Shown here: piece by piece, positions 7,632 through 57,187 of the stretch
How positions within the stretch are numbered: position 1 is the stretch's first letter
How the letters are laid out: each line of letters begins with the position of its first letter
NCBI GenBank assembly: GCA_028711065.1
Contig: JAQTSY010000001.1
Span: forward strand, 86,610-150,609
DNA: 64,000 nt
Reading direction: 5' to 3'
Source of the DNA: Minisyncoccota bacterium
GTDB lineage: Bacteria; Patescibacteriota; Minisyncoccia; Phycocordibacterales; JAQTLZ01
Notes under the pieces: generated by a model
Told to the model about the DNA's origin: nothing
Databases searched by the model: none
Seen by the model: the letters and a program-made list of their open reading frames with translations, nothing else
Made by a program: the position numbers and the translations under genes

Positions 7632-7818
7632 AGGAAGGCGAGTAACAACTTTTATCAAACATCGCGGAAACTCGCGGGCATGGTCTGTCAACGACCCGCC
7701 CTTTGGGGACGGGCTCATTGACAGCCGCGAGTTGAGCGAGAGGAAAGTTTTCCCGCTGGGGAAAACTATTCTGTTTTGAGAAAAGTTGTTAGGAGCCCAT
7801 TTGTGTTATAATTTCAGG

Positions 7819-9085: not shown

Positions 9086-10429
9086 ATGGCAAAAGAAATT
9101 TTTCAAGATGTAATACCTCCAGGAAAAAGAAGTATTCGGCGTATTCCATTGAAGGGACAGAAAGTTCCACCACCACCCAAACCCACCCGTGAGAAGGAAC
9201 GACTCGTGGAGACGCCCCCTAAAAGAGAGGTGAGAAGGGAAGAACCTCCTGTGCCTTTCATGAAAGAGACGCATTACTCTTACGAGGCTAAAAGGCGCTT
9301 TCCGAAGGGGCTTCTTTGGGGAGTTGTTGGTATCGTCGTTCTTGCACTCCTTGTTTTTCTCCTAACAACTTTCTCCGCAAGCGCGAAGATTACAATTACT
9401 GCTCGGGAGGCCGACACTTCTCTTGATAGTGATTTCCTAGCGCAGCAAAATCCAAGCAAGGATGCTATCGCGTATCAAATTATTCCTGTTTCAGAAGATG
9501 CAAAAGAGATTGTGAAAGCAAGCGGAACGGAAGACGCTAAAAAGAAAGCATCCGGGACTGTTGTTCTCTACAACAACTTTTCTACTACCCCCCAGAAACT
9601 CATTCGAAATACCAGAATTGCTACCGCTGATGGTCTCATTTACAGAATTGATTCGTCTGTAACAATACCCGGAAAATCAACAGTTGCAGGAAAGTCGGTA
9701 CCTGGTTCAGCAACTGTGCTTGCATACGCAGATTCTGCGGGAGAAGAATATAATGTCGGACTTGTTGATTTCACCATTCCAGGATTTAAAGGGACCACAA
9801 AATACAAAGATTTCTACGGAAGATCCAAAACTCCTATGCAAGGGGGGCTGATTGGGAAAATAAATACTATAACTCTTCAAGAACGCTCCGATGCAATTAA
9901 AAGATTGCAGACGAAAGCGGTAGCAGAACTTATCTCGCAAGCAAATACTCAAAGACAAGATGGTGCTGTGATCTTTTCAAATTCATATACAACAGATTTC
10001 TCAAATCTTCCAGACAGGCAAGCAGAAGGGAATTCCATTGAGGTAGGAGTTCATGCGAATCTCAAAGCGATCGCATTTGACGAGGCTGCCCTTGGAGCTC
10101 TCATAGCAGAGAAAACAATAAAAGATTTTGATCAGAGTCCAGTTGTTGTCTTAAATATGGATAGTCTTGCTTACGAAGCCAAGAAGGCTGATCCGAAACA
10201 CCCATTTGATCCTGGGGCAATTCCATTTCACTTAAAAGGCCAGCCAAAAATCCAATGGATTTTCGATTCCGCAAAAATTAAATCTGACGTTGCAGGGAAG
10301 CCACGCGGCGATCTCCAAAATATCCTTGCAGCATACCACGGAATAGAAAAAGCCGAGGTAGTCGTCAAACCATTCTGGCTTCGTTCTTTCCCCTCTGATA
10401 CCTCAAAAATCGCTATCGAACAGCACTAA
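9086..10429 (+). CDS. membrane-anchored hypothetical protein
   Basis: Pro/Lys-rich N-terminus, a single TM helix ('LLWGVVGIVVLALLVFLL') and a large extracytoplasmic domain. Sits downstream of the FtsA-like gene. Confidence 0.5.
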   Translation: MAKEIFQDVIPPGKRSIRRIPLKGQKVPPPPKPTREKERLVETPPKREVRREEPPVPFMKETHYSYEAKRRFPKGLLWGVVGIVVLALLVFLLTTFSASAKITITAREADTSLDSDFLAQQNPSKDAIAYQIIPVSEDAKEIVKASGTEDAKKKASGTVVLYNNFSTTPQKLIRNTRIATADGLIYRIDSSVTIPGKSTVAGKSVPGSATVLAYADSAGEEYNVGLVDFTIPGFKGTTKYKDFYGRSKTPMQGGLIGKINTITLQERSDAIKRLQTKAVAELISQANTQRQDGAVIFSNSYTTDFSNLPDRQAEGNSIEVGVHANLKAIAFDEAALGALIAEKTIKDFDQSPVVVLNMDSLAYEAKKADPKHPFDPGAIPFHLKGQPKIQWIFDSAKIKSDVAGKPRGDLQNILAAYHGIEKAEVVVKPFWLRSFPSDTSKIAIEQH

Positions 10430-24618: not shown

Positions 24619-26355
24619 TTAGAATCTGTTGATTACGTCCTCCAAACCCAGTTCAGTAACCTCCTGGGTTCTGCGATTTCGCAATTCAACGATGCCTTCG
24701 GCAGCACGCCGGCCGACAGTTATTCGCCAAGGACAACCAATGAGGTCCGCGTCTTTAAACTTCGCACCTCCTTGCAGACTTTCACGATCGTCGAGGAGTA
24801 CCGGTATCCCTCGTCCAGCCAGACGCTCATAAAGCGTATCTGATACCTTTCGCTGGTCTGGGTTGTCATACTTGACCGGTATAATCTCGACCCTGAATGG
24901 GGCGACTGATACGGGCCAGATGATTCCATCTTTGTCCCGATTTTGTTCCACGATTGCCTGCATAAGGCGGGTTGTTCCGATACCGTAGCAACCCATCCAG
25001 AGAGGGTGTGGCTTGCCATCCTCGCCTTTGTATGTTGCTCCCATCTTATCTGTATAAAGGCTTTGAAGCATAAAGATGTGCCCCACTTCAATGCCGTGAC
25101 TTTCCTGTAACAAGCCCATTTTGCATTCAGGGCATGTATGGCCAGCCACTGCGAGGTGAAGGTCAAAATAGCACTCCGGCGCGGCGAAATCACGTCCCGG
25201 TACCACATCAAGGAAGTGGTGCTCGGTCTTGTTTCCGCCGCATAGGATGTTGATCAGTCCTTCGACCGAACGGTCGAAGAGAATGGCGCGCACGTTCTGA
25301 AGTCCGATCGGGCCTGCAAAGCCAACGTCAGCGCCCGTGACAGCGCGTACGACGTCCGGTTTTGCCGGTTCCACCGATTGCGCGCTGAGCGCGTTTTTGA
25401 GTTTGATGATATTGATTTCCAGATCGCCTCGGATGCAGACCGCGACTTGGTACGATTGGCTTGGGCCAAGTTCCTCGTCGGCGGTGAGAATAATGGTCTT
25501 CACCATACGAGTTGCATCAAGGTCCGGAAACAGCTTGACCAGATCTTCCACGGTGCGTGTATTCGGCGTGTATTCAAGACGCATTGTCGCCGAGGGCTTG
25601 CTTTGCGGTGTGGGCGTCGGAACAACACTCGTTGCCTTTTCGGCATTTGCTCCATAATTGCAAGTGGGGCAGGTCAGGAGTATGTCTTCCCCACCCTCTT
25701 CCGAAACCGCCATAAATTCCGAGGAACCTTTTCCCCCGATGGCGCCTGAATCCGCTTGCACGTTGATGCAATTGGTCAGTCCGACCCGCTGAAATATCTC
25801 CGTATAGATTAGGCGGAAGAGATCGAAACTCTTCTGCATACCAGCTTGGTCGCGATCGAACGAGTAGGCGTCCGACATATCGAATTCGCGACACCGAAGC
25901 AGTCCGTGCCGAGGCCGGATTTCATCTCTGAATTTCCATCCGATTTGATGCCAAATGACCGGCAAATCGCGGTAACTGTCAATCGTTTCTGCCGCGAGTT
26001 GTGTTACCACTTCTTCTGCGGTTGGAGCCAGGCCAAACTTCGCGCCAGTGTGCCGTTCGGTGGTCTCGAACATCACCTTTGTGCCGGTATACTTATCCCA
26101 GCGTTCGGTTTTCAGCCAAAGTTCTTGCGGTTGCAAAATCGGCAACTGCAAGTTTTGCACATCGTGGCTTTCCATCACGTCCCAGACGATCGCCTGGATT
26201 TGTCTCCAGACGCGAAAGCCGAGTGGCAACAGAATGTAAGATCCCGGTGCCAATTGCTTAATGAAGCCTGCCTTCAGGAGGAAGGAGTGGGCCGCTGTCA
26301 TCGCCGCACCGACCTCGCCGTAGCGAGTTCGGGGAAACAATTTGGTCATTCTCAT
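24619..26355 (-). CDS. proS: proline--tRNA ligase (bacterial type with editing insertion)
   Basis: 578-aa class II ProRS with motif-2/3 regions and an INS domain. GC content is markedly higher than genome background. Confidence 0.9.
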   Translation of the reverse strand: MRMTKLFPRTRYGEVGAAMTAAHSFLLKAGFIKQLAPGSYILLPLGFRVWRQIQAIVWDVMESHDVQNLQLPILQPQELWLKTERWDKYTGTKVMFETTERHTGAKFGLAPTAEEVVTQLAAETIDSYRDLPVIWHQIGWKFRDEIRPRHGLLRCREFDMSDAYSFDRDQAGMQKSFDLFRLIYTEIFQRVGLTNCINVQADSGAIGGKGSSEFMAVSEEGGEDILLTCPTCNYGANAEKATSVVPTPTPQSKPSATMRLEYTPNTRTVEDLVKLFPDLDATRMVKTIILTADEELGPSQSYQVAVCIRGDLEINIIKLKNALSAQSVEPAKPDVVRAVTGADVGFAGPIGLQNVRAILFDRSVEGLINILCGGNKTEHHFLDVVPGRDFAAPECYFDLHLAVAGHTCPECKMGLLQESHGIEVGHIFMLQSLYTDKMGATYKGEDGKPHPLWMGCYGIGTTRLMQAIVEQNRDKDGIIWPVSVAPFRVEIIPVKYDNPDQRKVSDTLYERLAGRGIPVLLDDRESLQGGAKFKDADLIGCPWRITVGRRAAEGIVELRNRRTQEVTELGLEDVINRF

Positions 26356-28630: not shown

Positions 28631-29782
28631 TTATTTGGCGAAGACAAAGTCGTTGGCATGGATGGCGATGACCGCCGCTCCCCGCAATTGCTCCTTTTCG
28701 GCTTCTGGCAATATGCGGTACTTGTCGACTTTTTCTCGCAACTCATGGCTGGTGTGGCGGGTCAGTCCGCGTCCGAGGAGAATGCCGTCGTCATCAATAA
28801 TTTCGACGACGTCTCTTTTCCCGAACTCGCCCCTAACCTCTTCGATGCCGGCCAAGAGAACCGAAGGGGTTCTCCGCTCGCTTTTGTTCTGAGTTCCGCC
28901 TTCGCGAAGCCTGTCAGCTAGATAAGTTGAGACCACAATTTTTCCCGCTCCGACTGCCGCTGTGAGAAGCCAGCTTTTCAAGGCCTCTTCTTTTTCGGCT
29001 GTTGTGGGGAAGAATGTGCCGAGCTTCTCGCCCCCGATAATCCGCATAAGCGGTGTTTTCTCGGTTCCGGCGGCAATATGCATAGGAATGCCGAGCGAAG
29101 TTACTTTCTCGGCACAGAGGAGCTTGCTCTGAATGCCTCCCTTGCCGGTGTGTTTCCCCGCCTCAAATGTTTCCATAAAGGTGGAGACATCGGCAATTTC
29201 CGGTATAAGTTTGGCGCCCTCTTCCTGTGGCGGACGATCATACACTCCTGCCACGTTGGTGAGGAGGATGAGTTCGTCAGCCGATATCATCGCTGCAATA
29301 ACAAGCGCGAGCTGGTCATTGTCGCTGAAATCCAGTTCTTCCGGCGAGAGCACATCGTTCTCGTTGAAGATTGGAATAACGCCGTATCGGAGGAGTTCTC
29401 CGGTAACGACGCGCAAGCTCAAGTAGAACCTGCGATCAGCGAAGTCGGATCTTGTCGTCAGGAGTTGCCCGCAGCTCAAGTTATGTTTGGCGAATTCTTC
29501 GCTATACAACGCCATGAGCTTCGGTTGGCCTACAGACGCGAGAATTTGCTCCCGAAGAAGCCTCGAGTCATACCGGTCTGGCGCATTGACGGCGAACGTT
29601 GGGTTCGCGAATTGCGAGACGGTTTTCCCCAGGATGACTGCCCCCGAGGAGATAATGACGACTTGATGGCCTTGCTTTACGAGTCCGGCAACGTCTTCCA
29701 CGAGGTTTGCGATAACCTCGTGCTTGATGCCGTCCGGCCCGGAAAGCACAGCGGAACCGATTTTTACTGCGATGCGTTTCAT
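28631..29782 (-). CDS. proB: glutamate 5-kinase (with PUA domain)
   Basis: 'IAVKIGSAVL' amino-acid kinase N-terminus and a C-terminal PUA domain. GC-rich like proS. Confidence 0.85.
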   Translation of the reverse strand: MKRIAVKIGSAVLSGPDGIKHEVIANLVEDVAGLVKQGHQVVIISSGAVILGKTVSQFANPTFAVNAPDRYDSRLLREQILASVGQPKLMALYSEEFAKHNLSCGQLLTTRSDFADRRFYLSLRVVTGELLRYGVIPIFNENDVLSPEELDFSDNDQLALVIAAMISADELILLTNVAGVYDRPPQEEGAKLIPEIADVSTFMETFEAGKHTGKGGIQSKLLCAEKVTSLGIPMHIAAGTEKTPLMRIIGGEKLGTFFPTTAEKEEALKSWLLTAAVGAGKIVVSTYLADRLREGGTQNKSERRTPSVLLAGIEEVRGEFGKRDVVEIIDDDGILLGRGLTRHTSHELREKVDKYRILPEAEKEQLRGAAVIAIHANDFVFAK

Positions 29783-42196: not shown

Positions 42197-44128
42197 ATGA
42201 AGCAAATACTTATTTTTGTTGCTGTTATTATCATCCTCGTTGTTGGAGGATTTTTTTTGCAAAACAAAAATAATCTCGAGAAAGTCCAGAATATAATTAC
42301 GAGAGCAACTCCGACCCCGACACCAACACCCGAAATTGACCCAAGCTCGCTTACCTGGACACAGACAAAAACAAACGCGGAAGGCTGGCCAAAACGCGAC
42401 TCTCATTCGGTATTTGTATTTGATAATAAGATGTGGGTGCTTGGCGGGCTTGATGCCGATAGTTCAAAAATTGCCGGAGTACCTGATTATGAATCAGCAA
42501 TTTATTACAACGATATTTGGAATACTTCAGACGGCGTGAATTGGACGAGAGTAGTGGAACATGCCGATTTTCCTTACATCCGCTCGGCATCGGTCGTCAA
42601 TTTCAAAGGAGTGCTCTATATGTACGGAGGCTGGAGCCCGCATGATGGGCTTGAATATAAAAACGGTATTTGGAGCTCGACTGATGGAATTCATTGGAAA
42701 AAAGTGGTTGAGAAACCGGAATATCCTGAAAGGGAGGGACAAATCGTGCTCGAATGGAATGGGAAACTGTGGCTCGTCGCGGGTGTGGATTATTTTGGGA
42801 GGAAAACGTTCAACGACGTTTGGTCTTCTGACGACGGGATCCACTGGACAGCGGCAACCACAGACGCCCCTTGGCATTCAAGGTGGGACCACGCGCTCGG
42901 TGTATGGAACGGAAAAATGTATATCGCCGGAGGAATGAATTTTCACGGAGTTGGCTACAGCGATGAATGGGTCTCAAGCGATGGCGCTCATTGGGACCTC
43001 GTAAGTCCGAACGCTGCATGGGGAGAAAGGCAAGGACAAGAAATAGTAAATTACCATGGATACATGTGGCTCATTAGTGGGCTTCATTCTGCAAGCAACG
43101 AGGGTAAAGGTGACGCGTGGTATAGCACTGACGGAATTGAATGGAAAAAAGCTTCGGACGATTACCAATGGAAGGGTAGGGAAGACCACGGCGTCATTGT
43201 GTTCAACGATAAAATCTGGGTAATGGGAGGAATGGACAGCGATTGGCACTGGAATGGAGATGTGTGGTCTTCCGGTTTTTTGCCGATGTTTAGCGCACCA
43301 AGAGAAAAAATATCGCCAACACCATCACCAGAACCCACAGTAGATCTTTCAAAGCCGGACGTTTCAGCACTTGAATATTTTTCCATTCTTTTAGATGCGC
43401 AAGGGAAACAGACAATCCTCGCGGAGAAGAATAAAAATATGCCGGTACCAATTGCAAGCATAACCAAACTTATGACAGCAGTGATTGCAAGCGAAGAGCT
43501 GCCTGCAGACAGAAACATAACCGTACCAGCAAGCGCTCTAGCGGGGAAGGGAAGTGCGGGAGAAATAAAGGCTGGAGAAACATTTTCTCTGAATGACCTG
43601 CTTTCTATACTTCTTCTTCCTTCCGATAACGATACTGCGGAACTTTTAGCGCAAACAGTTGGTGAAGAAAAGTTTATTAATCTCATGAATAAGAAGGCCC
43701 AAGAGATCGGAATGACTCACACAAAATACGTAAATGCCATGGGACTTGATAACGGAACTGCAATTGATTCAAATCAGTCTACAGCTGAAGATCTTTCTAA
43801 ATTGGCTATCTATATTATTAAAAATCATCCAAAGATTCTTGCGATAACCGGCACAAAAGAAAAAACTGTTTCAGATACCGCAGGAATACAGCATACGCTC
43901 AAGTCTACAAACCATATGTTTGATATTAAAATGGCGGTTGATGTTCTTGGAGGAAAAACTGGAGAAACGCCACTTGCGAAGAAAAACCTTGTTCTCATCA
44001 CGAACGGATTTTCTCCCCAATCTTCTAGCCCAGATGACCGCATGATTTCGGTTGTTCTCCATTCAGACGATAATTTTTTTGATATGCAAAAACTTATATT
44101 CTGGATAGTAAGCAACTGGAAAAAATAA
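42197..44128 (+). CDS. membrane-anchored beta-propeller / D-alanyl-D-alanine carboxypeptidase (S11, PBP5-like) fusion protein
   Basis: N-terminal TM helix, then five or more ~47-aa repeats with 'W.S.DG..W' and 'GG' (Kelch/Asp-box-like). The C-terminal domain carries 'SITK' (SxxK), 'SDN' and 'KTG' serine-peptidase motifs. Confidence 0.75.
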   Translation: MKQILIFVAVIIILVVGGFFLQNKNNLEKVQNIITRATPTPTPTPEIDPSSLTWTQTKTNAEGWPKRDSHSVFVFDNKMWVLGGLDADSSKIAGVPDYESAIYYNDIWNTSDGVNWTRVVEHADFPYIRSASVVNFKGVLYMYGGWSPHDGLEYKNGIWSSTDGIHWKKVVEKPEYPEREGQIVLEWNGKLWLVAGVDYFGRKTFNDVWSSDDGIHWTAATTDAPWHSRWDHALGVWNGKMYIAGGMNFHGVGYSDEWVSSDGAHWDLVSPNAAWGERQGQEIVNYHGYMWLISGLHSASNEGKGDAWYSTDGIEWKKASDDYQWKGREDHGVIVFNDKIWVMGGMDSDWHWNGDVWSSGFLPMFSAPREKISPTPSPEPTVDLSKPDVSALEYFSILLDAQGKQTILAEKNKNMPVPIASITKLMTAVIASEELPADRNITVPASALAGKGSAGEIKAGETFSLNDLLSILLLPSDNDTAELLAQTVGEEKFINLMNKKAQEIGMTHTKYVNAMGLDNGTAIDSNQSTAEDLSKLAIYIIKNHPKILAITGTKEKTVSDTAGIQHTLKSTNHMFDIKMAVDVLGGKTGETPLAKKNLVLITNGFSPQSSSPDDRMISVVLHSDDNFFDMQKLIFWIVSNWKK

Positions 44129-44153: not shown

Positions 44154-45227
44154 ATGGTCATAGATATCGTAAAAGTTTTTCTACCCTCAACCGTGGCTTT
44201 CTGTATGGGTATTTTCATCACCCCGTTTCTTACAGACTACCTCTACAAACACGAAATGTGGAAGAAAAAAGCGGGCAAAGTTGATATGCAGGGAAATGCT
44301 ACGCCCATTTTTAACTCCCTTCATAAAGAAAAAGAAGTGGGAACTCCAAGAATGGGAGGTATTGTAATTTGGGGAAGCACTATTGTAACAGTGCTCTTTT
44401 TCTTTTTGCTCGCAAGAATTTTCCCGAGCGCCCTTTCGCACAAAATTGATTTTCTTTCCCGAAATCAAACGTGGCTTCCGCTCTCAACCCTTTTTCTCGG
44501 GGCGATCGTAGGACTCATTGATGATTGGCTCGAGATAAAAGGAAGCCGAGATCATATCGCCGGGGGACTTTCTCTGAAAAAAAGACTTACCGCCGTTTTG
44601 GTCATAAGCCTTCTTTGCGCGCTGTGGTTTTATTTCAAACTTGGAGTTTCTTCGATTGGACTTCCGTTTCATTTTGAATTGCCACTCGGACTCCTCTTTA
44701 TTCCGTTTTTTATGGCAGTAACTGTTTTTATTTATTCCGGCGGGGTTATCGATGGGCTGGACGGCCTCGCGGGAGGAGTTTTTGCAAGTATGTTTGCCGC
44801 ATATGCTGGAATCGCTTTTTATCAAAATCAAATAGACCTTGCAGCGCTTTGCGCCACCTTTGTCGGGGGAATAATGGCATTTTTGTGGTTTAACATTCCT
44901 CCGGCTCGATATTATATGTCTGAAACGGGAACAATGGGCCTCACCATCGCTCTTGCCGTAGTGGCATTTCTTACCGATTCACTCGCAGGCGGATATGGCA
45001 TTTTGGTGCTTCCAGTCATTGCATTACCGCTTGTGTTAACAACCCTTTCAAACATTATCCAGGTCCTTTCAAAAAAATACAGAGGGAAGAAAGTGTTTCT
45101 CGTCGCACCGCTCCATCATCATTTCGAAGCCCTCGGCTGGCCGGCATATAAAGTGACGATGCGTTATTGGATCATAGGAATTATTTTTGCAATTTTGGGA
45201 CTCATTTTGGCGTTGATTGGAAAATAG
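44154..45227 (+). CDS. mraY: phospho-N-acetylmuramoyl-pentapeptide transferase
   Basis: 'GLIDDWLEI', 'DGLDGLAGG' and 'PLHHHFE' MraY motifs across 10 TM helices. Confidence 0.9.
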   Translation: MVIDIVKVFLPSTVAFCMGIFITPFLTDYLYKHEMWKKKAGKVDMQGNATPIFNSLHKEKEVGTPRMGGIVIWGSTIVTVLFFFLLARIFPSALSHKIDFLSRNQTWLPLSTLFLGAIVGLIDDWLEIKGSRDHIAGGLSLKKRLTAVLVISLLCALWFYFKLGVSSIGLPFHFELPLGLLFIPFFMAVTVFIYSGGVIDGLDGLAGGVFASMFAAYAGIAFYQNQIDLAALCATFVGGIMAFLWFNIPPARYYMSETGTMGLTIALAVVAFLTDSLAGGYGILVLPVIALPLVLTTLSNIIQVLSKKYRGKKVFLVAPLHHHFEALGWPAYKVTMRYWIIGIIFAILGLILALIGK

Positions 45228-45232
45228 AAAGC

Positions 45233-45405
45233 TCGCCCACACCTTTTGGAAAACAGCCCCACTGGTTCTTTGATTGCGGAATAGTCGGTTTTCTTCACGG
45301 AAAATTGAAAACTCCTCGCGTGGGCTTTGTCAGACAGTTCAATTTTCCTAAAAACCTCCTTTCCGCTGCACAAAGCCCAGTGAGTTTCCCAAAAGGTGTG
45401 GGACT
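45233..45405. repeat. nested long inverted-repeat element (MITE-like or structured RNA)
   Basis: Outer arms 'cccacaccttttggaaaacagcccc' (45236-) and 'cccagtgagtttcccaaaaggtgtggg' (-45402) are reverse complements. Inner palindrome 'ggaaaattgaa...ttcaattttcc' at 45298-45348. Confidence 0.5.
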
Positions 45406-45503
45406 CGCTTGCGTGGTAAAAAATTGACATAACAAAACATAAATTGTAAAGTTTGGTTTGGCTTCATTGACATACAACCAAAACCCCATTCGGAGGTACC
45501 GCC

Positions 45504-47561
45504 ATGAAAAAGGTTTGTTTTTTGGGGGCTTTTGTGGCCCTGATCCTTTGCAGTGTTGATGTCACGATGACCAGAGAAGGCCTCGTGACATGGACAAGCG
45601 TAAATTACGACAGCGATCCGATGTACGTTCACTTCGAAGATGGGCGATCCGTAACCCTCCACAAAGGGCAAAGTCTGATCGTCTCAGAGCCTTGTGTTCT
45701 TCACGTTCATTCGTGCGGTTGGGATAAGATCCCGTTCACCCCGCAGAAATCGATGAGGTTTAGTCCCCGGCAGGCAAGTATGCTTCCCGTAGTACCAATG
45801 TCGAACAACAAGAGGCGGAAAATTATTCTCAATTATCCACCAGTGTCGTCCGTGTGGCATCTGCCGTTCGGAATCGCACAACTCGCCGCGTGTCTCAAAG
45901 AGCGCGGGCACGAAGTGCGTCAGCGATACGGTCACATCATAGGCCTCGAGCATATACTCCGTGAATATGGAGGAGATGAAGCCGAAGGAGCAATCGCCAC
46001 GATTCGAGATCCAAAGAGTGATATTCTGGCACTTTATAATGTCCAGCAATCGCTCAAAAAGATTTCGAAAAGTGTGCCGACAAGGGATAAATTCGTCGTG
46101 TACGGCAACAACGCAAACTATGTTTCAGCCGACAACGACGGAAGCATTGAAGGAATCCTATGTGCTATCGAAAACCGGAAAAGCAATATGTGGTATCGCT
46201 ACTTCGCCGAAGTGGAAATTCCTCTGGCGGAAGATTGTCAGCCGGATATTTACGGCGTGAGCATCGCGGACGAACGTCATCTGGTGCAAGGATTTATTCT
46301 TGCATCGCTTGTGAAGGAAGCCCTGCCCAAGACCCTCGTGGTCATCGGCGGAAATTTCTTCGCACGCACACCGGATGCATTCAAGACGCCTGAGTTTGCA
46401 AAGCTTTTCGACCATTGCGACGCAATCGTCTGGAGCGAAGGCTTCGAGCCGATCTGCAAACTCGCCGACTCACTTGACCCTTCCTCTACACCCGGAACGG
46501 CGTGGAGAAATGGAGACAAAGTAATCGTCAATCCACCGTCGGTAGATGCAACGTCGTTTGAATCACTACCAACTCCCATCTTTGATGGGGGAGCTCGGCA
46601 GTGGTCGCCTGATGACGTGTATCCGCTTTATACGATGTCGAATTGTCCAATGCAATGCGGCTTCTGCGCCATCGCGGCCGGAAGCGACACATTCCTTGGA
46701 CGATCACGAATGATGAGTCCGCAGCGGGTAGCAGAGCATATGCAAAAGCTCGACGGACATCGGTTTGATATCATCAACGAACTCATGCCGGTTCCATACC
46801 AACTCGCTCTCGGGGCTGAACTGAAAAAAATCGGCCACGAAGCGACCTGGCAGTGTTACCTGACTGTCACGAACGACCTCGCCGACCCGGCAAAGTGCAA
46901 GCAATTGTACGATGCGGGTTGCCGTGGCGTTCAGCTCGGTCTCGAAACACTTTCGCGCGAAACGCTTCTCCGCGAGAAAAAGGGGTGGAACCATCCCGAA
47001 CACTACGTGGAGATACTTCGCAATCTGAAAGATGCCGGAATACAAACACACGTGTTCCTGCTTCTCGGATTGCCGGGACAGCCACTTCATCACGATCTGC
47101 GCTGGCTGGCGTTTCTTGAAGAGCACGGCGACCTTATCTTGACTATCAAAAGCGGACGCTACCGGCTCGCGAGGAAAGCGCCGGAAGAACAATTCGGCAC
47201 GCACAGCTCCCTTATCAAAGTTGCAGAGAGCATCAAGCCGCTTCGGCTCAATCGGGACTTCCAGTATACGAGCAAATTCTTGAGCCGGTCCCGAGTCGAG
47301 GCGGTTCGAGACATTCTTGAAGAAGCATGTCGGCGGCACTGGGCATATCAAACCACAACGATTCTCCCTTGGTGGATCAATCGGGGCAGATATTCGTGGA
47401 ATGATTTCTCCGAGATGGCGAAGGTACTGCCGCGAGAAGAGCCAGTCCGACACATCGACGAGGCGGTAAAAAAGATGGAGCGGCTCGTCTTCGACGAGCT
47501 TGGCAGAAAAGAGACCTTTTCGTCATTTGAAGATTTGGTCGCTTTCTCCCACACCATCTAG
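45504..47561 (+). CDS. B12-binding domain / radical SAM protein (GC-rich insertion in the dcw cluster)
   Basis: 'RKIILNYPP' plus 'VVIGGNFFARTP' B12-binding-like N-domain. 'CPMQCGFC' is a CxxxCxxC radical-SAM cluster motif. 685 aa at about 55% GC. The N-terminal ~98 aa is hydrophobic and signal-peptide-like. GGAGG RBS at 45491-45495. An alternative internal start is M99 at 45798. Confidence 0.75.
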   Translation: MKKVCFLGAFVALILCSVDVTMTREGLVTWTSVNYDSDPMYVHFEDGRSVTLHKGQSLIVSEPCVLHVHSCGWDKIPFTPQKSMRFSPRQASMLPVVPMSNNKRRKIILNYPPVSSVWHLPFGIAQLAACLKERGHEVRQRYGHIIGLEHILREYGGDEAEGAIATIRDPKSDILALYNVQQSLKKISKSVPTRDKFVVYGNNANYVSADNDGSIEGILCAIENRKSNMWYRYFAEVEIPLAEDCQPDIYGVSIADERHLVQGFILASLVKEALPKTLVVIGGNFFARTPDAFKTPEFAKLFDHCDAIVWSEGFEPICKLADSLDPSSTPGTAWRNGDKVIVNPPSVDATSFESLPTPIFDGGARQWSPDDVYPLYTMSNCPMQCGFCAIAAGSDTFLGRSRMMSPQRVAEHMQKLDGHRFDIINELMPVPYQLALGAELKKIGHEATWQCYLTVTNDLADPAKCKQLYDAGCRGVQLGLETLSRETLLREKKGWNHPEHYVEILRNLKDAGIQTHVFLLLGLPGQPLHHDLRWLAFLEEHGDLILTIKSGRYRLARKAPEEQFGTHSSLIKVAESIKPLRLNRDFQYTSKFLSRSRVEAVRDILEEACRRHWAYQTTTILPWWINRGRYSWNDFSEMAKVLPREEPVRHIDEAVKKMERLVFDELGRKETFSSFEDLVAFSHTI

Positions 47562-47585
47562 GTTGCATATCAAAAAGTACTTTCT

Positions 47586-47617
47586 GTAGCACTGCGCAAG
47601 CGGTGCTATTTTATTTA
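47586..47617 (+). terminator. intrinsic terminator after the radical SAM gene
   Basis: 'agcactgcgcaagcggtgctattttattt'. Confidence 0.65.
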
Positions 47618-47654
47618 TTGAAAAGTGTTATTGAGTGTGTGTTATAATAATTCG

Positions 47655-48755
47655 ATGAGCCACGCTCGCATAGATAAAGTCCTCCTCGCTTCTTTTGCCA
47701 TCCTCGTCTTTGTGGGATTTTTTATTTTCACTTCCGCCTCTCTAGGACTCCTTACTCGCGGAGAGGGCGTATTTTCTCAAGTCGCGATCAAACAAATATT
47801 GGTGGGGATCATCCTTGGCTCGATCGCTTTTTTTATCACATTAAAAACTGATTATACTCATTGGCGCAAATATGCTTTTTTTATCGCTATTGCTTCCATT
47901 TGCTCTGCCGTACTCGTTTTCATACCGGGAATCGGATTCGCCCACGGCGGAGCGAAACGATGGATAGACATTGCAGGAATCTCTCTCCAGCCAGCAGAAT
48001 TTTTGAAACTGGGACTGATTATCTATTATGCAGCGTGGCTTTCGAAAGTGCGCGAAAAGATTTCCAAACTTCAATACGGTCTTTTTCCGCTTCTTATTGT
48101 TATTTTCATCGCAGCCGTTTTAGTCCTCCTCGAGCCTGACACTGGCACCTTTTTAGTTATTTTCGCAAGTCTTGTTGGAATGTTTATAGCTGCTCACGGA
48201 CGGTGGAGAGATATTCTCATACTTTTCCTTCTTTGTGCCATTGGCATATCTGGACTTTTTTATATGCGGCCATACATTCGCGAGAGATTTCTCACTTTTC
48301 TTGATCCAGCTCGCGACCCGCAAGGTTCCGGATATCAAATTCAACAGTCCCTCATTGCGATAGGCTCCGGTGGCATTTTCGGAAGGGGATTCGGGCAAAG
48401 CGTCCAGAAATTCAATTATCTTCCGGAGCCGATAGGGGATTCCATTTTCGCAGTAGCGGGAGAAGAATTCGGCTTCATTGGGAGTCTTCTTCTTGTCCTT
48501 CTCTACATTTTCTTTGCGCTTCGAGCTCTCCGGATGGCTTCAAAAGTCAATGATCTCTTTGGTAGACTGCTTATCGTAGGAATTGTTATACTAATTGTGT
48601 CCCAATCGTTCCTGAATATCGGCTCTATGCTTGGGATTCTTCCGCTCACCGGCGTTCCGCTTATCTTCGTGAGCCAGGGAGGCACAGCACTTCTTGTCGG
48701 AATGGCAGAAGTCGGTATTCTTCTTAATATTTCACGACGGAGAGCGATTGGATAA
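47655..48755 (+). CDS. ftsW: SEDS-family peptidoglycan glycosyltransferase FtsW
   Basis: About 10 TM helices and the SEDS loop 'GRGFGQSVQKFNYLPEPIGDSIFAVAGEEFGFIGS'. Adjacent to murG. Confidence 0.85.
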   Translation: MSHARIDKVLLASFAILVFVGFFIFTSASLGLLTRGEGVFSQVAIKQILVGIILGSIAFFITLKTDYTHWRKYAFFIAIASICSAVLVFIPGIGFAHGGAKRWIDIAGISLQPAEFLKLGLIIYYAAWLSKVREKISKLQYGLFPLLIVIFIAAVLVLLEPDTGTFLVIFASLVGMFIAAHGRWRDILILFLLCAIGISGLFYMRPYIRERFLTFLDPARDPQGSGYQIQQSLIAIGSGGIFGRGFGQSVQKFNYLPEPIGDSIFAVAGEEFGFIGSLLLVLLYIFFALRALRMASKVNDLFGRLLIVGIVILIVSQSFLNIGSMLGILPLTGVPLIFVSQGGTALLVGMAEVGILLNISRRRAIG

Positions 48756-52963: not shown

Positions 52964-53652
52964 TTTGTAAATTTCGCTATTTCTTCGGCGACAATTTTAG
53001 GATGAGTGATGTGGGGGGAATGTTTCGCTCCACCTATCACCACAAGTTTTGAATCTTTAATATTTTTCTGCATAAGGTATGCATCTGAAAGAGGTGTTAT
53101 TTTGTCTTCTTTGCCCCAGAGGATGAGGGTGGGGATGGAAATTTTTGTAAGCTCGGGTGTGAGGTCGCGTGAGATGAGATTTTTCATTGTCTCCCGCATA
53201 TTTTCGCCTGCTCGGCCGTAATCATTGGCACCAATTATTTTATAGAAAATTTTTCGGACGAGGGAAGAGTTGAGAAAAAATTTCCCGATTCGCGCGAGAC
53301 CCCCGAACACCGCACGCTTTGCGCGCAGAGGAAATTCATTGTGAACAATTCCTGCGGAATCTAAAAGGATAAGTTTCCGGATAAGGCTTGGATTTTTGGC
53401 AATAGCTGCAATGGCAATTCTGCCTCCATTTGAATGCCCGAGAAGCGTCACATTTTGTTCACCGACCAGAGCTTTTTCCAGCCAAATAACATACTCGGGA
53501 AGCGTCCACACTTTATCTGATTTCTCTGCGAGTCCAGGAACACGAAGCATAACAGGTTCAAACCCGCGTGAACGAAGTTCTGCGAGACACGGCTCCCAAG
53601 CATCGAGCGTGTATGTCCAGCCGTGAATAATGTGAATCTTTATATTTGCCAT
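52960..53652 (-). CDS. alpha/beta hydrolase
   Basis: Nucleophile elbow 'GHSNGG' with an Asp/His triad arrangement. Last gene of the minus-strand operon. Confidence 0.75.
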   Translation of the reverse strand: MANIKIHIIHGWTYTLDAWEPCLAELRSRGFEPVMLRVPGLAEKSDKVWTLPEYVIWLEKALVGEQNVTLLGHSNGGRIAIAAIAKNPSLIRKLILLDSAGIVHNEFPLRAKRAVFGGLARIGKFFLNSSLVRKIFYKIIGANDYGRAGENMRETMKNLISRDLTPELTKISIPTLILWGKEDKITPLSDAYLMQKNIKDSKLVVIGGAKHSPHITHPKIVAEEIAKFTN

Positions 53653-54974
53653 TTTTTACGTTGATTAACCCAGATTGCTTCCCGACGGCACAGTTTTGAG
53701 GCGTCAGACGGATTCAAGAGAAGTTTTTCTACAACGCCCTCTAAATATCTTGCCCCTTTGAAAAGAATTGTTTCTCCTCCTTTCAATTCTCTTTTGAGAT
53801 ACAAGAGGGCTTCACCGGGCATAAGAAAGGCTATGACTTTTTGAGTTCCTAGATGTTTTACAAGCGGGGGATAGGTATATTTTGTGAGTCTCGGCCCAAC
53901 AAGAATAACCCGCGCAGGGGAGACAGACAAGATGTCTTTTGCAATATCTATGTGCTCTGCCTCCTCGCTCTTGCCTTGTTCAATCATATCTCCGAGGACA
54001 AGCCACTTTTCGCCTATGGCCGGATGGCGACGAGTAAGATCAAGCATCGTCCGCATTCCATCCATTGTTGCATTGTAGGTGCTATCAATAAGCGTCGTGT
54101 TTTCTATTCCCTGAAATACCGAGCTTCTGCCAGGAGGAAGTTCGAAATTTCTAAACGTGGAATCAACTTTAAATCCAAGAGTTTTCACAGCCGTCGAAAC
54201 CGCGACAACCGAGAGGGAAGAGGCGGGTGGAACCAACCGAGGGAGCGAGAAATTCCCGACCAGAGTCTCAATCTCTACGCCCTCGTTTACAATTTTAAAG
54301 CTCCGGATCTCCTTTTCAGAAACTGGAATTACTTTTGATTTTGTCCGTTTTGATTGTTTTGTTATGAAACGATTGTCAGCGTTTAAAATAGAAAACCCCT
54401 TGGTAGTCTCCAGAAAATGGCCAAATTCGTTTGCCATCGCTTCTTTGACTGCCTCGCGATGATTATCTCCGGAAGATGCAACAATGCGATCAAAATTTAT
54501 TCCGTGCGCTTCTTCCAAGGAAAGCCACACAAGCCCTTCGGGCTTTAGAAGTTGCGCCAAGAATTTTCCTTCACCCGGCCGTTCTGCGTCAGCCTCCACT
54601 ACATATAATTTCTCTTTTGGAAGGCCTCGAAATGCTCGAAATGGCGAGAGGAGAGCAAAAAGCGGCCATTCGATTATATTAAAAGATTTCCGCTGAAGCC
54701 CCAGAATATGAAATGGAATCCCAAAAGTGCTGTTTGCGTGGTGCGAATATCGAGCCCTTTCGCCAAGTTCGGCTTCAAATAAATGAAGGAGGGTTGTTTT
54801 CCCACTTGAGCCGATAACCGCTATGATTTTCGGATTCCATCGGCGCAAATAGATTTTTGCCCAAAATCGAAAGTAGCTGGCTACAAAAAAATAAATTTTC
54901 TTTTTTATTGTTCTTAGAATTTTCATATGCCGCGTTTTATTTTTCGTACCGTTTCGACAACAAAATTGATCCAA
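53640..54974 (-). CDS. Mur ligase family protein (MurF-like, short N-terminus)
   Basis: 'IIAVIGSSGKTT' Mur-ligase P-loop and a central/C-terminal Mur ligase fold. Overlaps the neighbouring genes, consistent with an operon. Confidence 0.55.
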   Translation of the reverse strand: MDQFCCRNGTKNKTRHMKILRTIKKKIYFFVASYFRFWAKIYLRRWNPKIIAVIGSSGKTTLLHLFEAELGERARYSHHANSTFGIPFHILGLQRKSFNIIEWPLFALLSPFRAFRGLPKEKLYVVEADAERPGEGKFLAQLLKPEGLVWLSLEEAHGINFDRIVASSGDNHREAVKEAMANEFGHFLETTKGFSILNADNRFITKQSKRTKSKVIPVSEKEIRSFKIVNEGVEIETLVGNFSLPRLVPPASSLSVVAVSTAVKTLGFKVDSTFRNFELPPGRSSVFQGIENTTLIDSTYNATMDGMRTMLDLTRRHPAIGEKWLVLGDMIEQGKSEEAEHIDIAKDILSVSPARVILVGPRLTKYTYPPLVKHLGTQKVIAFLMPGEALLYLKRELKGGETILFKGARYLEGVVEKLLLNPSDASKLCRREAIWVNQRKKWQI

Positions 54975-57187
54975 TATCTCGGGCTTAAAACATAATCCTG
55001 TGCAGGAACATACTTTCCTTCTCCACCGCCGAAACCGCGCTTAAATTGTGACAACCCGTACCACGGATGTTTTTTATCATCTTCAGAAACAATTCCCCAA
55101 AAATTATACGAATCACATCCGCGTTTTTTCGCTTCTTTTATCGCCTCCCATTGCAAAAGCTCCGATGCGGAAATAGAAGGGAAGGGGGTATTTGAAGCTC
55201 CGTGGTGATAAAATCCTGAATTCGAAGTATAGATGATAAATGCCGTTGAAATATATTGGCCTTTGTATTTTCCAAACCACAAAAGCGCCTGATTATTTTC
55301 TAGAAATGTTTTAAATTCATTCTCTAAATATTTTCTTGAAAACGGCGTAAAATTTTGCCGCTTCACCGTGTCCATATAAATTGACCAGAATTTTTCAAAA
55401 TCCTCCATTGATTTTGATGATTCAATCTCGACGCCATCTTTAATAGCCTTACGGACCGCATAACGAGTATTTTTCCTCATTCCAGTTTGAATTTCCTCCT
55501 CTGTTTTCGAAAGAGAGAGAACAGAGGTGTGTTCACTGTGGAGATGAATCGGAGCTTTTTTAAATCCTAGTTCAGTAAAAATTTTAGAATGAGCAGGGGA
55601 GTCCGCGAGTATACTACTGACCCGGATAAAGTGACAATTCTCCTTTCTACCAATCGCGACTGATTCATCTTTCAAGAGTTCGAGAATTTCTGAAGTTTTT
55701 CCCGAGTATGCGGGATCAATCGCTGGACTATGATGCCAAGCAAGAAAAGTCCCCCGGCGAGCGACAATTTTTGTAACACTCGAGGCCGCGACAAGCTTCC
55801 CTTCGTCATACACACCTAGTCTCCAAAGTTTATTTCCCATTTTCTTTTCAAACTCTCCCCAATTCCAAGAAATAAGAAAAGTTGCTGGTTTAACCCGCAT
55901 GAGAAATGACTCGAGCTCTTCTTTTGAATTAATTTCCCTTACTTGCATGAAAGAATCTTTTATTGCATTTGCGATTTTTTTCGCGTCCTGCACCGATATC
56001 TGGATACTAGTCGGCAAATTTATCGATTTTTCTGAAAGTTCTTTCGCGCGAGGATTCTCGGAGAGCGCAAATTGAATTTTTTCATACTGAACTCCTTCTG
56101 GGGCTATCGCGTCCGTATACCAATTACCAAGGCGCACTCCTCGCGTCTTCAAAAACAATGCGAGCTTTGATGGCAGATCGATAAGAATTGTGTAGCGGAG
56201 ATAGATGCTCTTTCTTATTTCATCTTTCACTTTGAGAGGCTTCACGATTCGAGAAATCGAAGCGAGTTCCCGTTCATATACTTCTGCTATCTGGCGGCGA
56301 TGCTCATTAAATGCAGAAAGCTTCGCGAATTGATGAAGTGCAACAAAAGCCAAAATATCTGACATTTTATGAAAGACGAAGCTTGGTTTGCCCCCGGAAA
56401 GTTCTGCCTTCTCAACTGCTTTTGAAAAAAATCCTAGGCGCTTGCAAATTTCGATGAAAATCTTGCCGATATTTGCTACTGAATAAAGAGGTTTTCCCAA
56501 AGCAAAGATGATTGGATGATTGAGTTGTTTCTTCACCCAACCCCATTTTGATTCAGAATATGATGCGTAGAGCGTCCGGACATCGTTTGCGATTCGCGCG
56601 TCTTTCACTAACAGTACACCTCCGAAGACCGAAGAAAGAACTTTATCCCGCCCGAAACTAAAGAAACTCGCATCGCCGAAACTTCCAACCTTTTTACCTT
56701 TATATTCTGCACCAAGCGCATGCGCGCAGTCTTCAATGACAAAAAGATTATGTCTTCGGGCGATAAGAAGCAACTCCTCCAGATGTGCCGGCGTGCCGAA
56801 TGTATGCTGGATGATGAGTACCCTGGCTTTCGAAGTAATTTTTTTCTCGAGATCTTCAGGATTCATCGTAAAGTCATCCAAACTATCGACATAAATAGGC
56901 TTCGCACCCACCCAAAGTATCGGCCCCGGCACTGCAACGCAGGTATAAGCTTGCAAAAGAACCTCATCAGTTGAGGAAAGATTCAGCGCGGATAAAATTG
57001 CAAAAAGAGATGTTCGCCCGCTATCAAAAGCAAAAGCATGGGGAAGGGGAATATAGGTCGAAATCGCATGCTCAAGGCGAGCTCTGGAACCGAGGGTCTT
57101 ATTCCTCGTCCACGGAAAAAATCGCAAACGAATTGCGAGGGAAATATCGTCACGCTCTGTGTTTGGCGAAAGGCTCGTAAAAATCAT
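54923..57187 (-). CDS. DegT/DnrJ/EryC1-family PLP aminotransferase fused to a FemAB-family aminoacyl-tRNA-dependent peptidyltransferase
   Basis: N-terminal half: 'DCAHALGAEYKGKKVGSFGDASFFSFGRDKVL' (DegT PLP-lysine region). C-terminal half: 'MRKNTRYAVRKAIKDGVEI', 'LLQWEAIKEAKKRGCDSYNFWGI' and 'GLSQFKRGFGG' (FemAB PF02388 signatures). A single 754-aa ORF. Confidence 0.8.
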   Translation of the reverse strand: MIFTSLSPNTERDDISLAIRLRFFPWTRNKTLGSRARLEHAISTYIPLPHAFAFDSGRTSLFAILSALNLSSTDEVLLQAYTCVAVPGPILWVGAKPIYVDSLDDFTMNPEDLEKKITSKARVLIIQHTFGTPAHLEELLLIARRHNLFVIEDCAHALGAEYKGKKVGSFGDASFFSFGRDKVLSSVFGGVLLVKDARIANDVRTLYASYSESKWGWVKKQLNHPIIFALGKPLYSVANIGKIFIEICKRLGFFSKAVEKAELSGGKPSFVFHKMSDILAFVALHQFAKLSAFNEHRRQIAEVYERELASISRIVKPLKVKDEIRKSIYLRYTILIDLPSKLALFLKTRGVRLGNWYTDAIAPEGVQYEKIQFALSENPRAKELSEKSINLPTSIQISVQDAKKIANAIKDSFMQVREINSKEELESFLMRVKPATFLISWNWGEFEKKMGNKLWRLGVYDEGKLVAASSVTKIVARRGTFLAWHHSPAIDPAYSGKTSEILELLKDESVAIGRKENCHFIRVSSILADSPAHSKIFTELGFKKAPIHLHSEHTSVLSLSKTEEEIQTGMRKNTRYAVRKAIKDGVEIESSKSMEDFEKFWSIYMDTVKRQNFTPFSRKYLENEFKTFLENNQALLWFGKYKGQYISTAFIIYTSNSGFYHHGASNTPFPSISASELLQWEAIKEAKKRGCDSYNFWGIVSEDDKKHPWYGLSQFKRGFGGGEGKYVPAQDYVLSPRYWINFVVETVRKIKRGI

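Follow-up and report, generated by a model that had tools for sequence, protein, structure and literature searches.

A radical SAM gene inserted between mraY and ftsW of a Minisyncoccota bacterium, and the palindromic element beside it

Class B, cobalamin-dependent radical SAM (rSAM) methyltransferases (TsrM, TokK, CysS, MgmA, PhpK and PoyC-type enzymes; PF02310 with PF04055) are the closest known systems to the enzyme described here. AprD4 (PDB 6fd2) is a rSAM 1,2-diol dehydratase of apramycin biosynthesis, 454 aa in length; to our knowledge it does not use cobalamin, and its Rossmann domain is without cobalamin binding. Small palindromic intergenic repeats of bacteria, MITEs among them, include ERIC/IRU, Correia/NEMIS and RUP. 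Genomic-island-like variable spots in conserved operons are the nearest likeness for the insertion site.

The window is the whole analysed stretch of 64,000 nucleotides of a Minisyncoccota bacterium. Its rSAM protein is only 13–18% identical to solved class B members, its scores for the curated subfamilies are all far under cut-off, and PF02310 is below threshold. The Rossmann domain differs from class B by its helical insertion. The long form of the family adds a signal-peptide-like helix and a beta-sandwich, of which we know no description for class B enzymes. AprD4 is 15% identical, lacks the N-terminal extension and the 145-residue C-terminal domain, and its NCBIfam model (rSAM_AprD4) gives 11.6 bits on the rSAM protein against a cut-off of 500. 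The mraY-ftsW interval of 2.4 kb is read as two independent additions, a rSAM cassette and a palindromic element, to a hot-spot spacer that is normally tens of bases long (probability roughly 0.7). Coordinates are collected in Table 1.

Table 1. Features of the mraY-ftsW region, in positions of the window
Feature	Position	Strand	Properties
mraY	44154..45227	+	357 aa; left flank of insertion site, conserved; Pfam Glycos_transf_4 1.2e-21
Imperfect palindrome	45231..45410	.	177-180 nt; folds as a single long hairpin with bulges; centred near 45319
ATTGACATA direct repeat	45423-45431 and 45466-45474	+	100% identical; spacing 43
Promoter-like TTGACA-17 nt-TAAAGT	45424..45452	+	10/12 consensus positions; consensus match only
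GGAGG ribosome-binding site	45492..45496	+	7 nt before ATG 45504
Radical SAM ORF	45504..47561	+	685 aa; B12-type Rossmann domain
Signal-peptide or signal-anchor-like segment	45504..45563	+	Residues 1-20; MKK, then 16-residue hydrophobic stretch
Small beta-sandwich	45555..45767	+	Residues 18-88, predicted; long form only; followed by disordered linker 89-101
Rossmann domain, cobalamin-binding type	45816..46538	+	Residues 105-345; helical insertion of ~100 residues
Radical SAM core	46617..47123	+	Residues 372-540; PF04055 4.5e-15
CX3CX2C	46644-46667	+	Residues 381-388, within radical SAM core
C-terminal domain, family-specific	47124..47558	+	Residues 541-685; confidently modelled
Intrinsic terminator of rSAM gene	47586..47619	+	10-bp stem, 4-nt loop, T-rich tail
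TGTTATAAT extended -10 box	47640..47648	+	6 nt before ftsW ATG 47655; similar boxes in relatives
ftsW	47655..48755	+	Right flank, conserved; Pfam FTSW_RODA_SPOVE 9.3e-99; synteny

The gene order ScpB-PBP-MraY-FtsW-MurG-GltX is conserved in 76 related Paceibacteria loci mapped by tblastn. MraY is 61–73% identical to its counterparts in 80 Paceibacteria/Parcubacteria loci. The mraY-ftsW spacer is at most 120 nt long in 57 of the 76 relatives and 166–3132 nt in the remaining 19, where its contents are unrelated: NTP-transferase, MNT/HEPN pair, helicase-like ORF, small ORFs, hairpin-only inserts. These unrelated inserts make the junction a hot spot of repeated insertion in the clade. It resembles a variable spot by this cargo, which includes the toxin-antitoxin-like MNT/HEPN pair, and differs from genomic islands in that the inserts are single genes or hairpins, with no integrase, tRNA or att repeats. 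The rSAM gene is present at the junction in none of the 76 Paceibacteria relatives (tblastn), and, the spacer being mostly short, its insertion between mraY and ftsW is specific to this lineage. An insertion at this place had been proposed in the first-pass annotation, and the synteny comparison that it called for, mraY-ftsW adjacency without the insert, gives the expected result. Its view that murD normally follows mraY and is displaced here is not upheld; relatives have ftsW directly after mraY. The ftsW start is most likely ATG 47655 rather than GTG 47625. In relatives, -10-like boxes are located 6–9 nt upstream of the ftsW ATG. The TGTTATAAT box is the native ftsW promoter, and the ftsW transcript is probably leaderless.

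Judged by its sequence signals, the rSAM gene is a self-contained monocistronic cassette, with a putative sigma-70-like promoter, a ribosome-binding site, an ORF and a predicted intrinsic terminator. The 685-aa ORF, the promoter, the terminator and the duplicated upstream motif had all been reported earlier and are found as described. The terminator-like stem, 47586–47609, is followed by TTTATTTATT. The first copy of ATTGACATA includes the -35 box; the second, which lacks a -10 partner, may be an operator. Upstream regions of the homologues have no common motif beyond generic TTGACA-like boxes. The position of the GGAGG site favours the start that gives 685 aa, not the 664-aa one of NCBI record MDD5050251.1, and GGAGG-type sites are also found upstream of homologues.

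Pfam Radical_SAM scores 56.7 bits at residues 377–530 and passes the gathering threshold (cut-off 29.5). The radical-SAM motif of the first-pass annotation is confirmed as SNCPMQCGFC, with C381, C385 and C388 invariant in 24 homologues. Radical SAM membership is indicated alike by the CX3CX2C motif, the Pfam score and a partial TIM-barrel fold. The AF2 model of the protein has a pLDDT of 88. Fold matches are AprD4 (best structural match), TsrM, MgmA, CysS and TokK; the best PDB match by sequence is TokK. Matches in NCBIfam are weak and to class B enzymes only. None of PhpK TIGR04479, rSAM_ocin_1 TIGR03975, HpnJ, HpnR, BzaD, ApyD, ladderane rSAM and AprD4 reaches its cut-off; the top scores are 53.2 against 600, 49.9 against 281.85 and 30.2 against 577.6 bits, and others are lower. 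The cobalamin-binding-like N-domain proposed earlier stands as a B12-type Rossmann fold, not as a Pfam assignment: B12-binding (PF02310) scores 22.1 bits at residues 242–292, below the 32.1 cut-off. From motif, profile and predicted fold the protein is classed as a radical SAM enzyme with a B12-type Rossmann domain. Invariant alignment columns of the C-terminal domain form the motifs ILTIKSGRYR, NRDF.Y, ACR.HW and PWW.NR.R. A defence-system role was considered and rejected; the PADLOC match is not significant.

Homologues number 166 matches, with 44–63% identity among the 120 matches listed. Full-length 50%-identity clusters above 500 bits number about 12, against 27,007 superfamily matches. 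Hosts are mostly Patescibacteria, with a few actinomycetes, and CPR and actinomycete members are ~50% identical. Going by these alignments, the family appears small, compact, highly conserved and patchily distributed. Its members are solo genes, and their neighbours are unrelated from genome to genome; in eleven other homologue loci they include copper homeostasis genes, pentose-phosphate enzymes, TrmB regulators, QueA and GCS2. Nothing on the family came up in full-text searches of the literature, and the annotation of second-tier relatives gives no informative names.

The rSAM ORF has a GC content of 0.521, compared with 0.439 in mraY, 0.451 in ftsW, 0.431 in murG and a window mean of 0.441. 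The gene is thus richer than its flanks, as had been noted, at 52% against 43–45% rather than 55% against 40%. The compositional check proposed with that claim is answered in part. GC3 is 0.577 against 0.433 ± 0.069 in the other ORFs of the window (+2.1 SD); the synonymous codon-usage distance is unremarkable, at rank 33 of 46, and at rank 12 of 23 among genes of at least 350 aa. Three housekeeping genes of the window, ProRS, ProB and a HisI-like gene, are equally GC-rich. Composition alone is therefore no proof of foreign origin, and as evidence for transfer it is of moderate rather than great strength. The family has 47–60% GC in CPR hosts with flanking GC from 41% to 62%. The rSAM protein is on a long branch grouping with the long-form proteins P0007 and P0019, the latter from a Patescibacteria contig of 55% GC. 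The search for a donor lineage recovered homologues, the nearest with 63% identity among the matches listed; since none of these is closer, no donor can be named. Horizontal transfer from a different Patescibacteria lineage of higher GC is the most likely origin of the copy, the donor being inferred.

The N-terminus had been described as a hydrophobic extension of ~98 aa. Hydrophobic residues are confined to 4–19, the sole such segment in a Kyte-Doolittle scan, and the predicted beta-sandwich takes up 18–88. The signal-peptide look persists in MKK and the 16 hydrophobic residues, whereas the c-region of this protein, CSVDVT, is atypical for a Sec-type signal peptide. A hydrophobic N-terminus is present in 51 of 53 long-form homologues, and approximately half of the family members have the signal-peptide-like helix and beta-sandwich. 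Sites of the (V/T/S)-x-A type, like VRA/E, TYA/E and KSA/V, are present in the homologue alignment. The rSAM N-terminus has no twin-arginine motif. Under the positive-inside rule such an N-terminal segment would leave all of the Fe-S enzyme outside the cell, a location difficult to square with radical SAM chemistry; we know of no precedent for an extracytoplasmic radical SAM enzyme. The only true puzzle of the locus is that an Fe-S enzyme should have an N-terminus resembling a signal peptide. The signal-anchor-like helix and the beta-sandwich suggest that the long form may act at the membrane. It is very unlikely that the long form is Sec-targeted to or across the membrane as an exported or surface-tethered rSAM/B12-type enzyme of episymbiotic CPR bacteria; if this were true, possible substrates in cell-wall-minimal CPR would be, for example, lipids or glycans of the envelope or derived from the host. 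A less radical version would be a cytoplasm-facing, membrane-anchored enzyme remodelling scavenged membrane lipids.

The palindrome starts 3–4 nt past the mraY stop, upstream of the rSAM promoter. Its 19-nt arms, 45236–45254 and 45384–45402, are 95% complementary, with pairing along the whole length. The minimum free energy of 45229–45410 is -70.9 kcal/mol (z -5.8) on the + strand and -85.5 kcal/mol (z -7.8) on the - strand, and none of 200 shuffles folds as well, which bears out the nested long inverted repeat seen at first pass. ORFs of the palindrome are palindrome-generated frames only, without homologues except P0273. By its general features it is like MITE-type repeats: ~180 nt, small, intergenic, without coding capacity, with terminal inverted repeats and a long imperfect hairpin, polymorphic in presence or absence at a conserved junction, and with more than one sequence context indirectly indicated. 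It differs from them in that a second full copy, a target-site duplication, a cognate transposase and Rfam similarity were not observed. No credible Rfam family is found at the gathering threshold in the whole window or at an E-value threshold in 45100–45600. No second copy is found in the window by a scan with 3 mismatches or by short-word blastn, and no second full copy in 109 loci, JGI metagenomes or viral contigs. In the JGI metagenomes the 19-mer arm gives 15 single-arm matches without further similarity, as by chance. Translated against 5.8 billion proteins, the + frame has no match. The - frame has one partial, diverged match, P0273, on another NCBI contig, which corresponds to 45245–45361 and has different flanks. 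The palindrome borders, ATAGAA/AGCTCG and CTCGCT/TGCGTG, form no direct repeat, and no target-site duplication is found there.

Evidence on copy number comes from assembly breaks. Logan assemblies have k=31, and every 31-mer is distinct by construction (PMC12424806). The Logan contigs L108 and L109 come from two runs and both stop at 45261, and L107 begins at 45381; in independent assemblies of two read sets the breaks are thus 30 nt (k-1) inside each palindrome end. Since contigs of unique flanks reach 30 nt into a repeated node, the repeat unit would be ~45232–45410, which is the palindrome. The palindrome has at most 14 nt exact in common with its own reverse complement and therefore cannot by itself collapse a k=31 graph. 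An invertible-segment reading of the breaks was rejected, because imperfect arms would make the orientations diverge elsewhere than at 45261 and 45381. Among relatives, one (L065) carries a 137-nt element twice, in the mraY-ftsW spacer and again between ftsW and murG, and another (L017) has a hairpin-only insert of ~175 nt at the mraY-ftsW junction. Most probably the palindrome is a dispersed, MITE-like repeat, small and without coding capacity, that does not belong to the rSAM cassette; its multi-copy status we infer from the assembly breaks. The earlier label of MITE-like is kept in part, on the k-1 breaks and the diverged P0273 copy, with no second full copy seen.

Transcription of the palindrome as the mraY 3' end would yield a long hairpin, which could serve to insulate the mraY transcript or to stabilise it. 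An intrinsic terminator is not indicated: the + strand tail is CTCGCTTGCGTGGTAAAAAA, the terminator scan gives no report there, and genuine terminators elsewhere in the window have T-tracts. The hairpin folds 15 kcal/mol better on the - strand. Transition mismatches are split 2:2 between the strands, so no functional strand can be inferred.

Other accounts of the palindrome and the insertion were weighed. It is possible, though doubtful, that the palindrome is a locus-specific RNA element at the mraY 3' end (terminator, insulator, RNase III processing or stabilising hairpin), selected after insertion, which would uncouple mraY from the foreign gene. The location in what would be the mraY 3' UTR, the high stability of the hairpin, the strong hairpins at the junction of several relatives with enlarged spacers and the failure to see a second full copy agree with this; the + strand stem is, however, not followed by a U-tract, unlike the canonical terminators of the window, the breaks, k-1 nt inward of both ends, suggest that the palindrome occurs in at least two sequence contexts, and P0273 has a related core in different flanks. 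Palindrome and gene are adjacent and are both absent at the junction of relatives, as would be expected had they come as one mobile unit with the palindrome as its scar or end. Such a unit is decidedly unlikely, as no matching repeat is located 3' of the rSAM gene, the inferred repeat unit ends at ~45410, before the rSAM promoter, and the locus has neither a transposase or integrase nor a target-site duplication. Nine homologue loci also have no comparable hairpin beside the gene, and on this and on the exclusion of the gene from the repeat unit the first-pass suggestion that the palindrome marks the rSAM insertion is not supported. That the gene was ancestral at the junction and lost in relatives, with no insertion at all, is barely credible: the long branch, the lack of a close donor and the undeviating codon usage would suit it, but it needs loss in all 76 sampled relatives (MraY identity span 61–73%), GC3 is raised by 2.1 SD, and the location of the family differs in every genome examined. 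Two independent additions to a hot-spot spacer remain the preferred reading.

On this preferred reading the cassette encodes an enzyme whose CX3CX2C [4Fe-4S] cluster would reductively cleave SAM to a 5'-deoxyadenosyl radical attacking an unactivated substrate position. A Rossmann domain that binds cobalamin, like those of TsrM, TokK, CysS and MgmA, would make methylation the expected outcome; one that binds none, like that of AprD4, a rearrangement or dehydration. Since the Rossmann domain of AprD4 is without cobalamin, the fold is no proof of B12 use. Methyltransferase activity is likewise unproven, as PF02310 is below threshold and AprD4 is the best structural match. Among the scanned ORFs of the window, none was noticed for cobalamin uptake or salvage.

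Its place beside cell-wall genes seems to be a coincidence for the rSAM gene. Homologues are solo genes with unrelated neighbours, which disfavours both a cell-wall role and a RiPP role on an adjacent precursor; the functional link to cell-wall genes and the RiPP-maturase idea raised earlier accordingly find no support. It is highly improbable that the enzyme is a functional addition to the cell-wall cluster, modifying lipid II, undecaprenyl carriers or peptidoglycan precursors. The gene does adjoin mraY, ftsW and murG on the same strand, and its membrane-anchor-like N-terminal helix would sit near membrane-bound MraY and FtsW; such a role is nevertheless disfavoured by the lack of a conserved dcw position, the gene being absent there in all 76 relatives, by homologues amid unrelated genes in the eleven other loci and not near dcw genes, bar one distant Mur ligase (L001), by its own promoter and terminator, and by the unrelated inserts that the junction gathers in 19 relatives. 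A RiPP-maturing class B C-methyltransferase of the PoyC or rSAM_ocin_1 type, with its peptide encoded elsewhere, is unlikely: NCBIfam scores are far below cut-offs (49.9 bits against 281.85), beside the homologues there is no conserved small ORF resembling a precursor, nor a conserved leader peptidase or transporter, the gaps beside two Actinomadura copies have no common small ORF, and gene neighbours vary.

Neither the rSAM family nor the palindromic repeats bear on any long-standing open question. The family is a compact B12-domain-type rSAM family without assigned function, retained by very small CPR genomes unable to make cobalamin. CPR genomes are usually described as mobile-DNA-poor; if the reading of the palindrome is true, they may hold small palindromic repeats inserting into operon spacers. 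The main value of the finding, if true, would be corrective. The mraY-ftsW junction of Paceibacteria is a landing site for unrelated genes and hairpins, and position in the dcw cluster would therefore be uninformative on function here.

The radical SAM (rSAM) gene between mraY and ftsW is well supported as a lineage-specific insertion. Eighty related loci were recovered with MraY as the probe (61–73% identity), and six window proteins were mapped onto them by tblastn. The conserved order in these loci is ScpB-PBP-MraY-FtsW-MurG-GltX; no rSAM homologue was found in them by tblastn. The mraY-ftsW spacer, taken in 76 loci after extrapolation to stop and start codons, is at most 120 nt long (median about 20) in 57 and 166–3132 nt in the other 19; that of the window, at 45228–47654, is 2427 nt. 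Enlarged spacers contain unrelated ORFs (NTP-transferase, nucleotidyltransferase (MNT)/HEPN-like pair, helicase-like, Obg-like, small ORFs) or strongly folding hairpins alone. The mraY-ftsW junction behaves as an insertion hot spot in Paceibacteria. Since the gene is absent from relatives and unrelated inserts occur in 19 of 76 loci, the insertion proposed by the first-pass annotation is upheld, at a hot-spot-like junction. The accompanying proposal that the gene displaced murD fails: in this clade murD never separates mraY from ftsW, and there was accordingly nothing to displace.

With 44.1% GC and genes that are nearly all housekeeping and on the + strand, the window is typical of Paceibacteria (Candidate Phyla Radiation, CPR) chromosomes. 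All elements described earlier for the mraY-ftsW interval, namely palindrome, promoter, duplicated motif, ORF and terminator, were located as claimed. The rSAM-ftsW joint is confirmed by Logan contig L107, which was assembled independently and matches window positions 45381–48062 at 100% identity.

Elements of the mraY-ftsW interval, in window coordinates
Feature	Position	Remark
mraY	44154–45227	left neighbour of the inserted stretch
Imperfect palindrome	45231–45410	first element after mraY
Promoter-like TTGACA-17-TAAAGT	45424–45452	before the rSAM gene
Second ATTGACATA copy	45466	between promoter-like site and rSAM gene
GGAGG ribosome-binding site		directly ahead of the rSAM ORF
rSAM ORF	45504–47561	685 codons
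Terminator-like stem with T-rich tail	47586–47609	3' of the rSAM ORF

The NCBI record of the protein is MDD5050251.1, from a 153-kb contig and titled 'radical SAM protein [Candidatus Pacebacteria/Paceibacterota bacterium]'. The NCBI start lies 21 codons downstream (45567 vs 45504), giving 664 aa, and the conserved hydrophobic N-terminus is thereby lost. The 685-aa start is favoured because 53 homologues share the conserved extension and GGAGG precedes the upstream ATG.

A -10-like box is located 6–9 nt ahead of the ftsW ATG in relatives, and the window retains TGTTATAAT-N6-ATG at 47640–47657. The insert therefore lies upstream of the native ftsW promoter, which is probably leaderless, with 47655 as the start of ftsW. 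A second TGTTATAAT with an ATG exactly 6 nt further on is present at 7804–7821, ahead of an ORF at 7819. The two sites and the boxes of relatives suggest leaderless mRNAs.

Two fused proteins are encoded elsewhere in the window. Upstream of mraY, at 42197–44128, a D-Ala-D-Ala carboxypeptidase (Peptidase_S11, residues 386–622) carries a Kelch beta-propeller fused at its N-terminal end (66–358) and encoded by locally GC-rich DNA (about 0.50); relatives align over ~200–330 residues only, at 26–37% identity. The 754-aa ORF at 54926–57187 (-) combines a DegT/DnrJ/EryC1 aminotransferase domain with a FemAB/GNAT-type domain and adjoins a Mur-ligase-like gene (53643–54926). The latter fusion is unusual for peptidoglycan side-chain chemistry.

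Composition gives moderate support for insertion of the rSAM gene. The ORF has 52.1% GC and a GC3 of 57.7% (+2.1 SD), and its neighbours 43–45% GC; the contrast reported earlier is thus real in direction, but its figures were somewhat off. The GC3 deviation is not matched by synonymous codon usage, the distance of which is unremarkable, and three housekeeping genes are equally GC-rich. These are ProRS (24622–26355, -), glutamate 5-kinase ProB (28634–29782, -) and a PRA-CH HisI-like gene (1856–2581, -), with GC of 0.53–0.54 and GC3 of 0.59–0.65. Acquisition or replacement is possible for these three genes as well.

The palindrome is statistically solid, ranking sixth of all 190-nt windows by GC-corrected folding energy. 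It matches no Rfam family, is not followed by a U-tract on the + strand and has no evident target-site duplication. Stronger folding is shown by canonical terminator clusters and one multi-stem element at 7643–7791. This element is intergenic, about 150 nt long, located between alaS and an ORF without Pfam match and closed by a 17-nt stem (TAACAACTTTTATCAAA / TTTGAGAAAAGTTGTTA). Its MFE is -79.8 kcal/mol over a 190-nt window, with no Rfam match.

The first-pass annotation took the palindrome as a possible MITE-like mark of the rSAM insertion. Logan contigs carrying this MraY, from two runs, both stop at 45261, and the Logan contig bearing the rSAM gene begins at 45381. Logan assemblies use k=31 with every 31-mer distinct by construction (PMC12424806), and therefore a contig with a unique flank runs on for k-1 = 30 nt inside a repeated node. 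Both breaks with the 30-nt overlap place a repeat at about 45232–45410, the palindrome itself. Against its own reverse complement the longest exact match is 14 nt, so the palindrome is unable to collapse a k=31 graph alone. Translation of its open - frame retrieved one 73-aa ORF (P0273) on an unrelated 1767-bp NCBI contig, 29/41 identical over the equivalent of 45245–45361, with differing flanks.

Structured elements occur at the same junction in relatives. Locus L065 contains a 137-nt element twice (8123–8259 and 9413–9549; 82% identity, inverted orientation), once in the mraY-ftsW and once in the ftsW-murG spacer; this is a case of a small intergenic repeat in a CPR genome. In locus L017 an imperfect hairpin of about 175 nt (8077–8266; MFE -78 kcal/mol, z -6.1), unrelated in sequence to the palindrome, fills the mraY-ftsW spacer without a cargo gene. 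Assembly breaks, the P0273 match and these elements are indirect observations that favour a small dispersed repeat, and a MITE-like nature is plausible. A purely local RNA insulator or processing hairpin is a serious rival: no second full copy was found in the 64-kb window, 109 loci, JGI metagenomes and viral contigs, which, like the missing target-site duplication, speaks against a MITE. As a mark of the rSAM insertion the palindrome fares worse, with no comparable hairpin beside the homologues at nine loci. The inferred repeat unit ends ahead of the rSAM promoter, and therefore palindrome and gene are best seen as two separate insertions.

The rSAM proteins form a compact, strongly conserved family. 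Among 5.8 billion proteins searched, 166 relatives were found, the best 120 of them 44–63% identical to the rSAM protein; organism names among the relatives listed are Patescibacteria, Uhrbacteria, Parcubacteria, Saccharothrix and Actinomadura. In a full HMMER scan of 1.84 billion representatives, about a dozen 50%-identity clusters of full-length proteins score above 500 bits, and lower scores run on continuously through 27,007 superfamily members. Four distant relatives (P0145, P0148, P0156, P0159) are giants of 2000–2300 aa matched by the rSAM profile in 4–6 separate stretches, tandem B12-type radical SAM modules within one polypeptide.

Eleven genomic contexts besides the window were inspected. 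CPR homologues are solo genes with their own upstream spacer and RBS, and their neighbours differ every time. A divergent TrmB regulator is near the homologue in two contexts: upstream of it in L004, and in L006 (6789–13424; Patescibacteria), where three TrmB-family regulators are interleaved with the homologue and with a distinct gene for a 462-aa B12-binding-domain protein. In all three actinomycetes inspected (L005, L105, L106; Saccharothrix, Actinomadura) a GCS2-family carboxylate-amine ligase adjoins the homologue; the two may form a module, a possible hint at the substrate. The closest homologue among the matches listed (63%) is on a non-CPR contig of 65% GC. Family GC is 47–60% in CPR hosts, with flanks of 41% to 62%. 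Neighbour joining puts the window protein on a long branch with two proteins of the long form, which bears an N-terminal extension; one is from a Patescibacteria contig of 55% GC. Solo occurrence, shifting neighbours, GC and tree pattern indicate repeated horizontal transfer, and argue against both a cell-wall role and a RiPP role with an adjacent precursor. The earlier suggestions of a link to cell-wall synthesis and of RiPP maturation are accordingly unsupported. The gene represents a subfamily of B12-domain-type radical SAM enzymes that is uncharacterized and horizontally mobile.

In Pfam, Radical_SAM is over threshold and B12-binding under it. NCBIfam gives weak matches to class B enzymes (PhpK, 53 bits vs cut-off 600; rSAM_ocin_1, 50 vs 282), and by these cut-offs no curated subfamily fits. 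PDB sequence and profile searches retrieve TokK, AprD4 and CysS at E 1e-6 to 4e-4. An AlphaFold2 model from 24 homologues is confident (pLDDT 88.3). Searches and model give an architecture of Rossmann (cobalamin-type) domain, radical SAM barrel (CX3CX2C) and family-specific C-terminal domain. Because AprD4 is the best structural match, cobalamin use is not to be assumed; the shared B12-type fold does not imply it.

The extension of about 100 residues is present in 53 of the best 120 of 166 family members, with a hydrophobic start in 51 of the 53. An n-region rich in K/R is followed by 12–16 hydrophobic residues and, in many cases, by a (V/T/S)-x-A site; a twin-arginine motif is absent from the extension. 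The N-terminus thus resembles a signal peptide of the Sec type or a signal anchor. The hydrophobic extension of ~98 aa described earlier is signal-peptide-like at its start, but hydrophobicity is confined to residues 4–19; a disordered linker comes further along in the AlphaFold2 model, and the protein has no second hydrophobic segment. It is difficult to see why an Fe-S/SAM enzyme would carry a Sec-type signal, and this N-terminus is the sole truly odd feature of the gene. The interest of the locus is modest and lies mainly in the long form with its signal-peptide-like start, then in the hot-spot and repeat observations.
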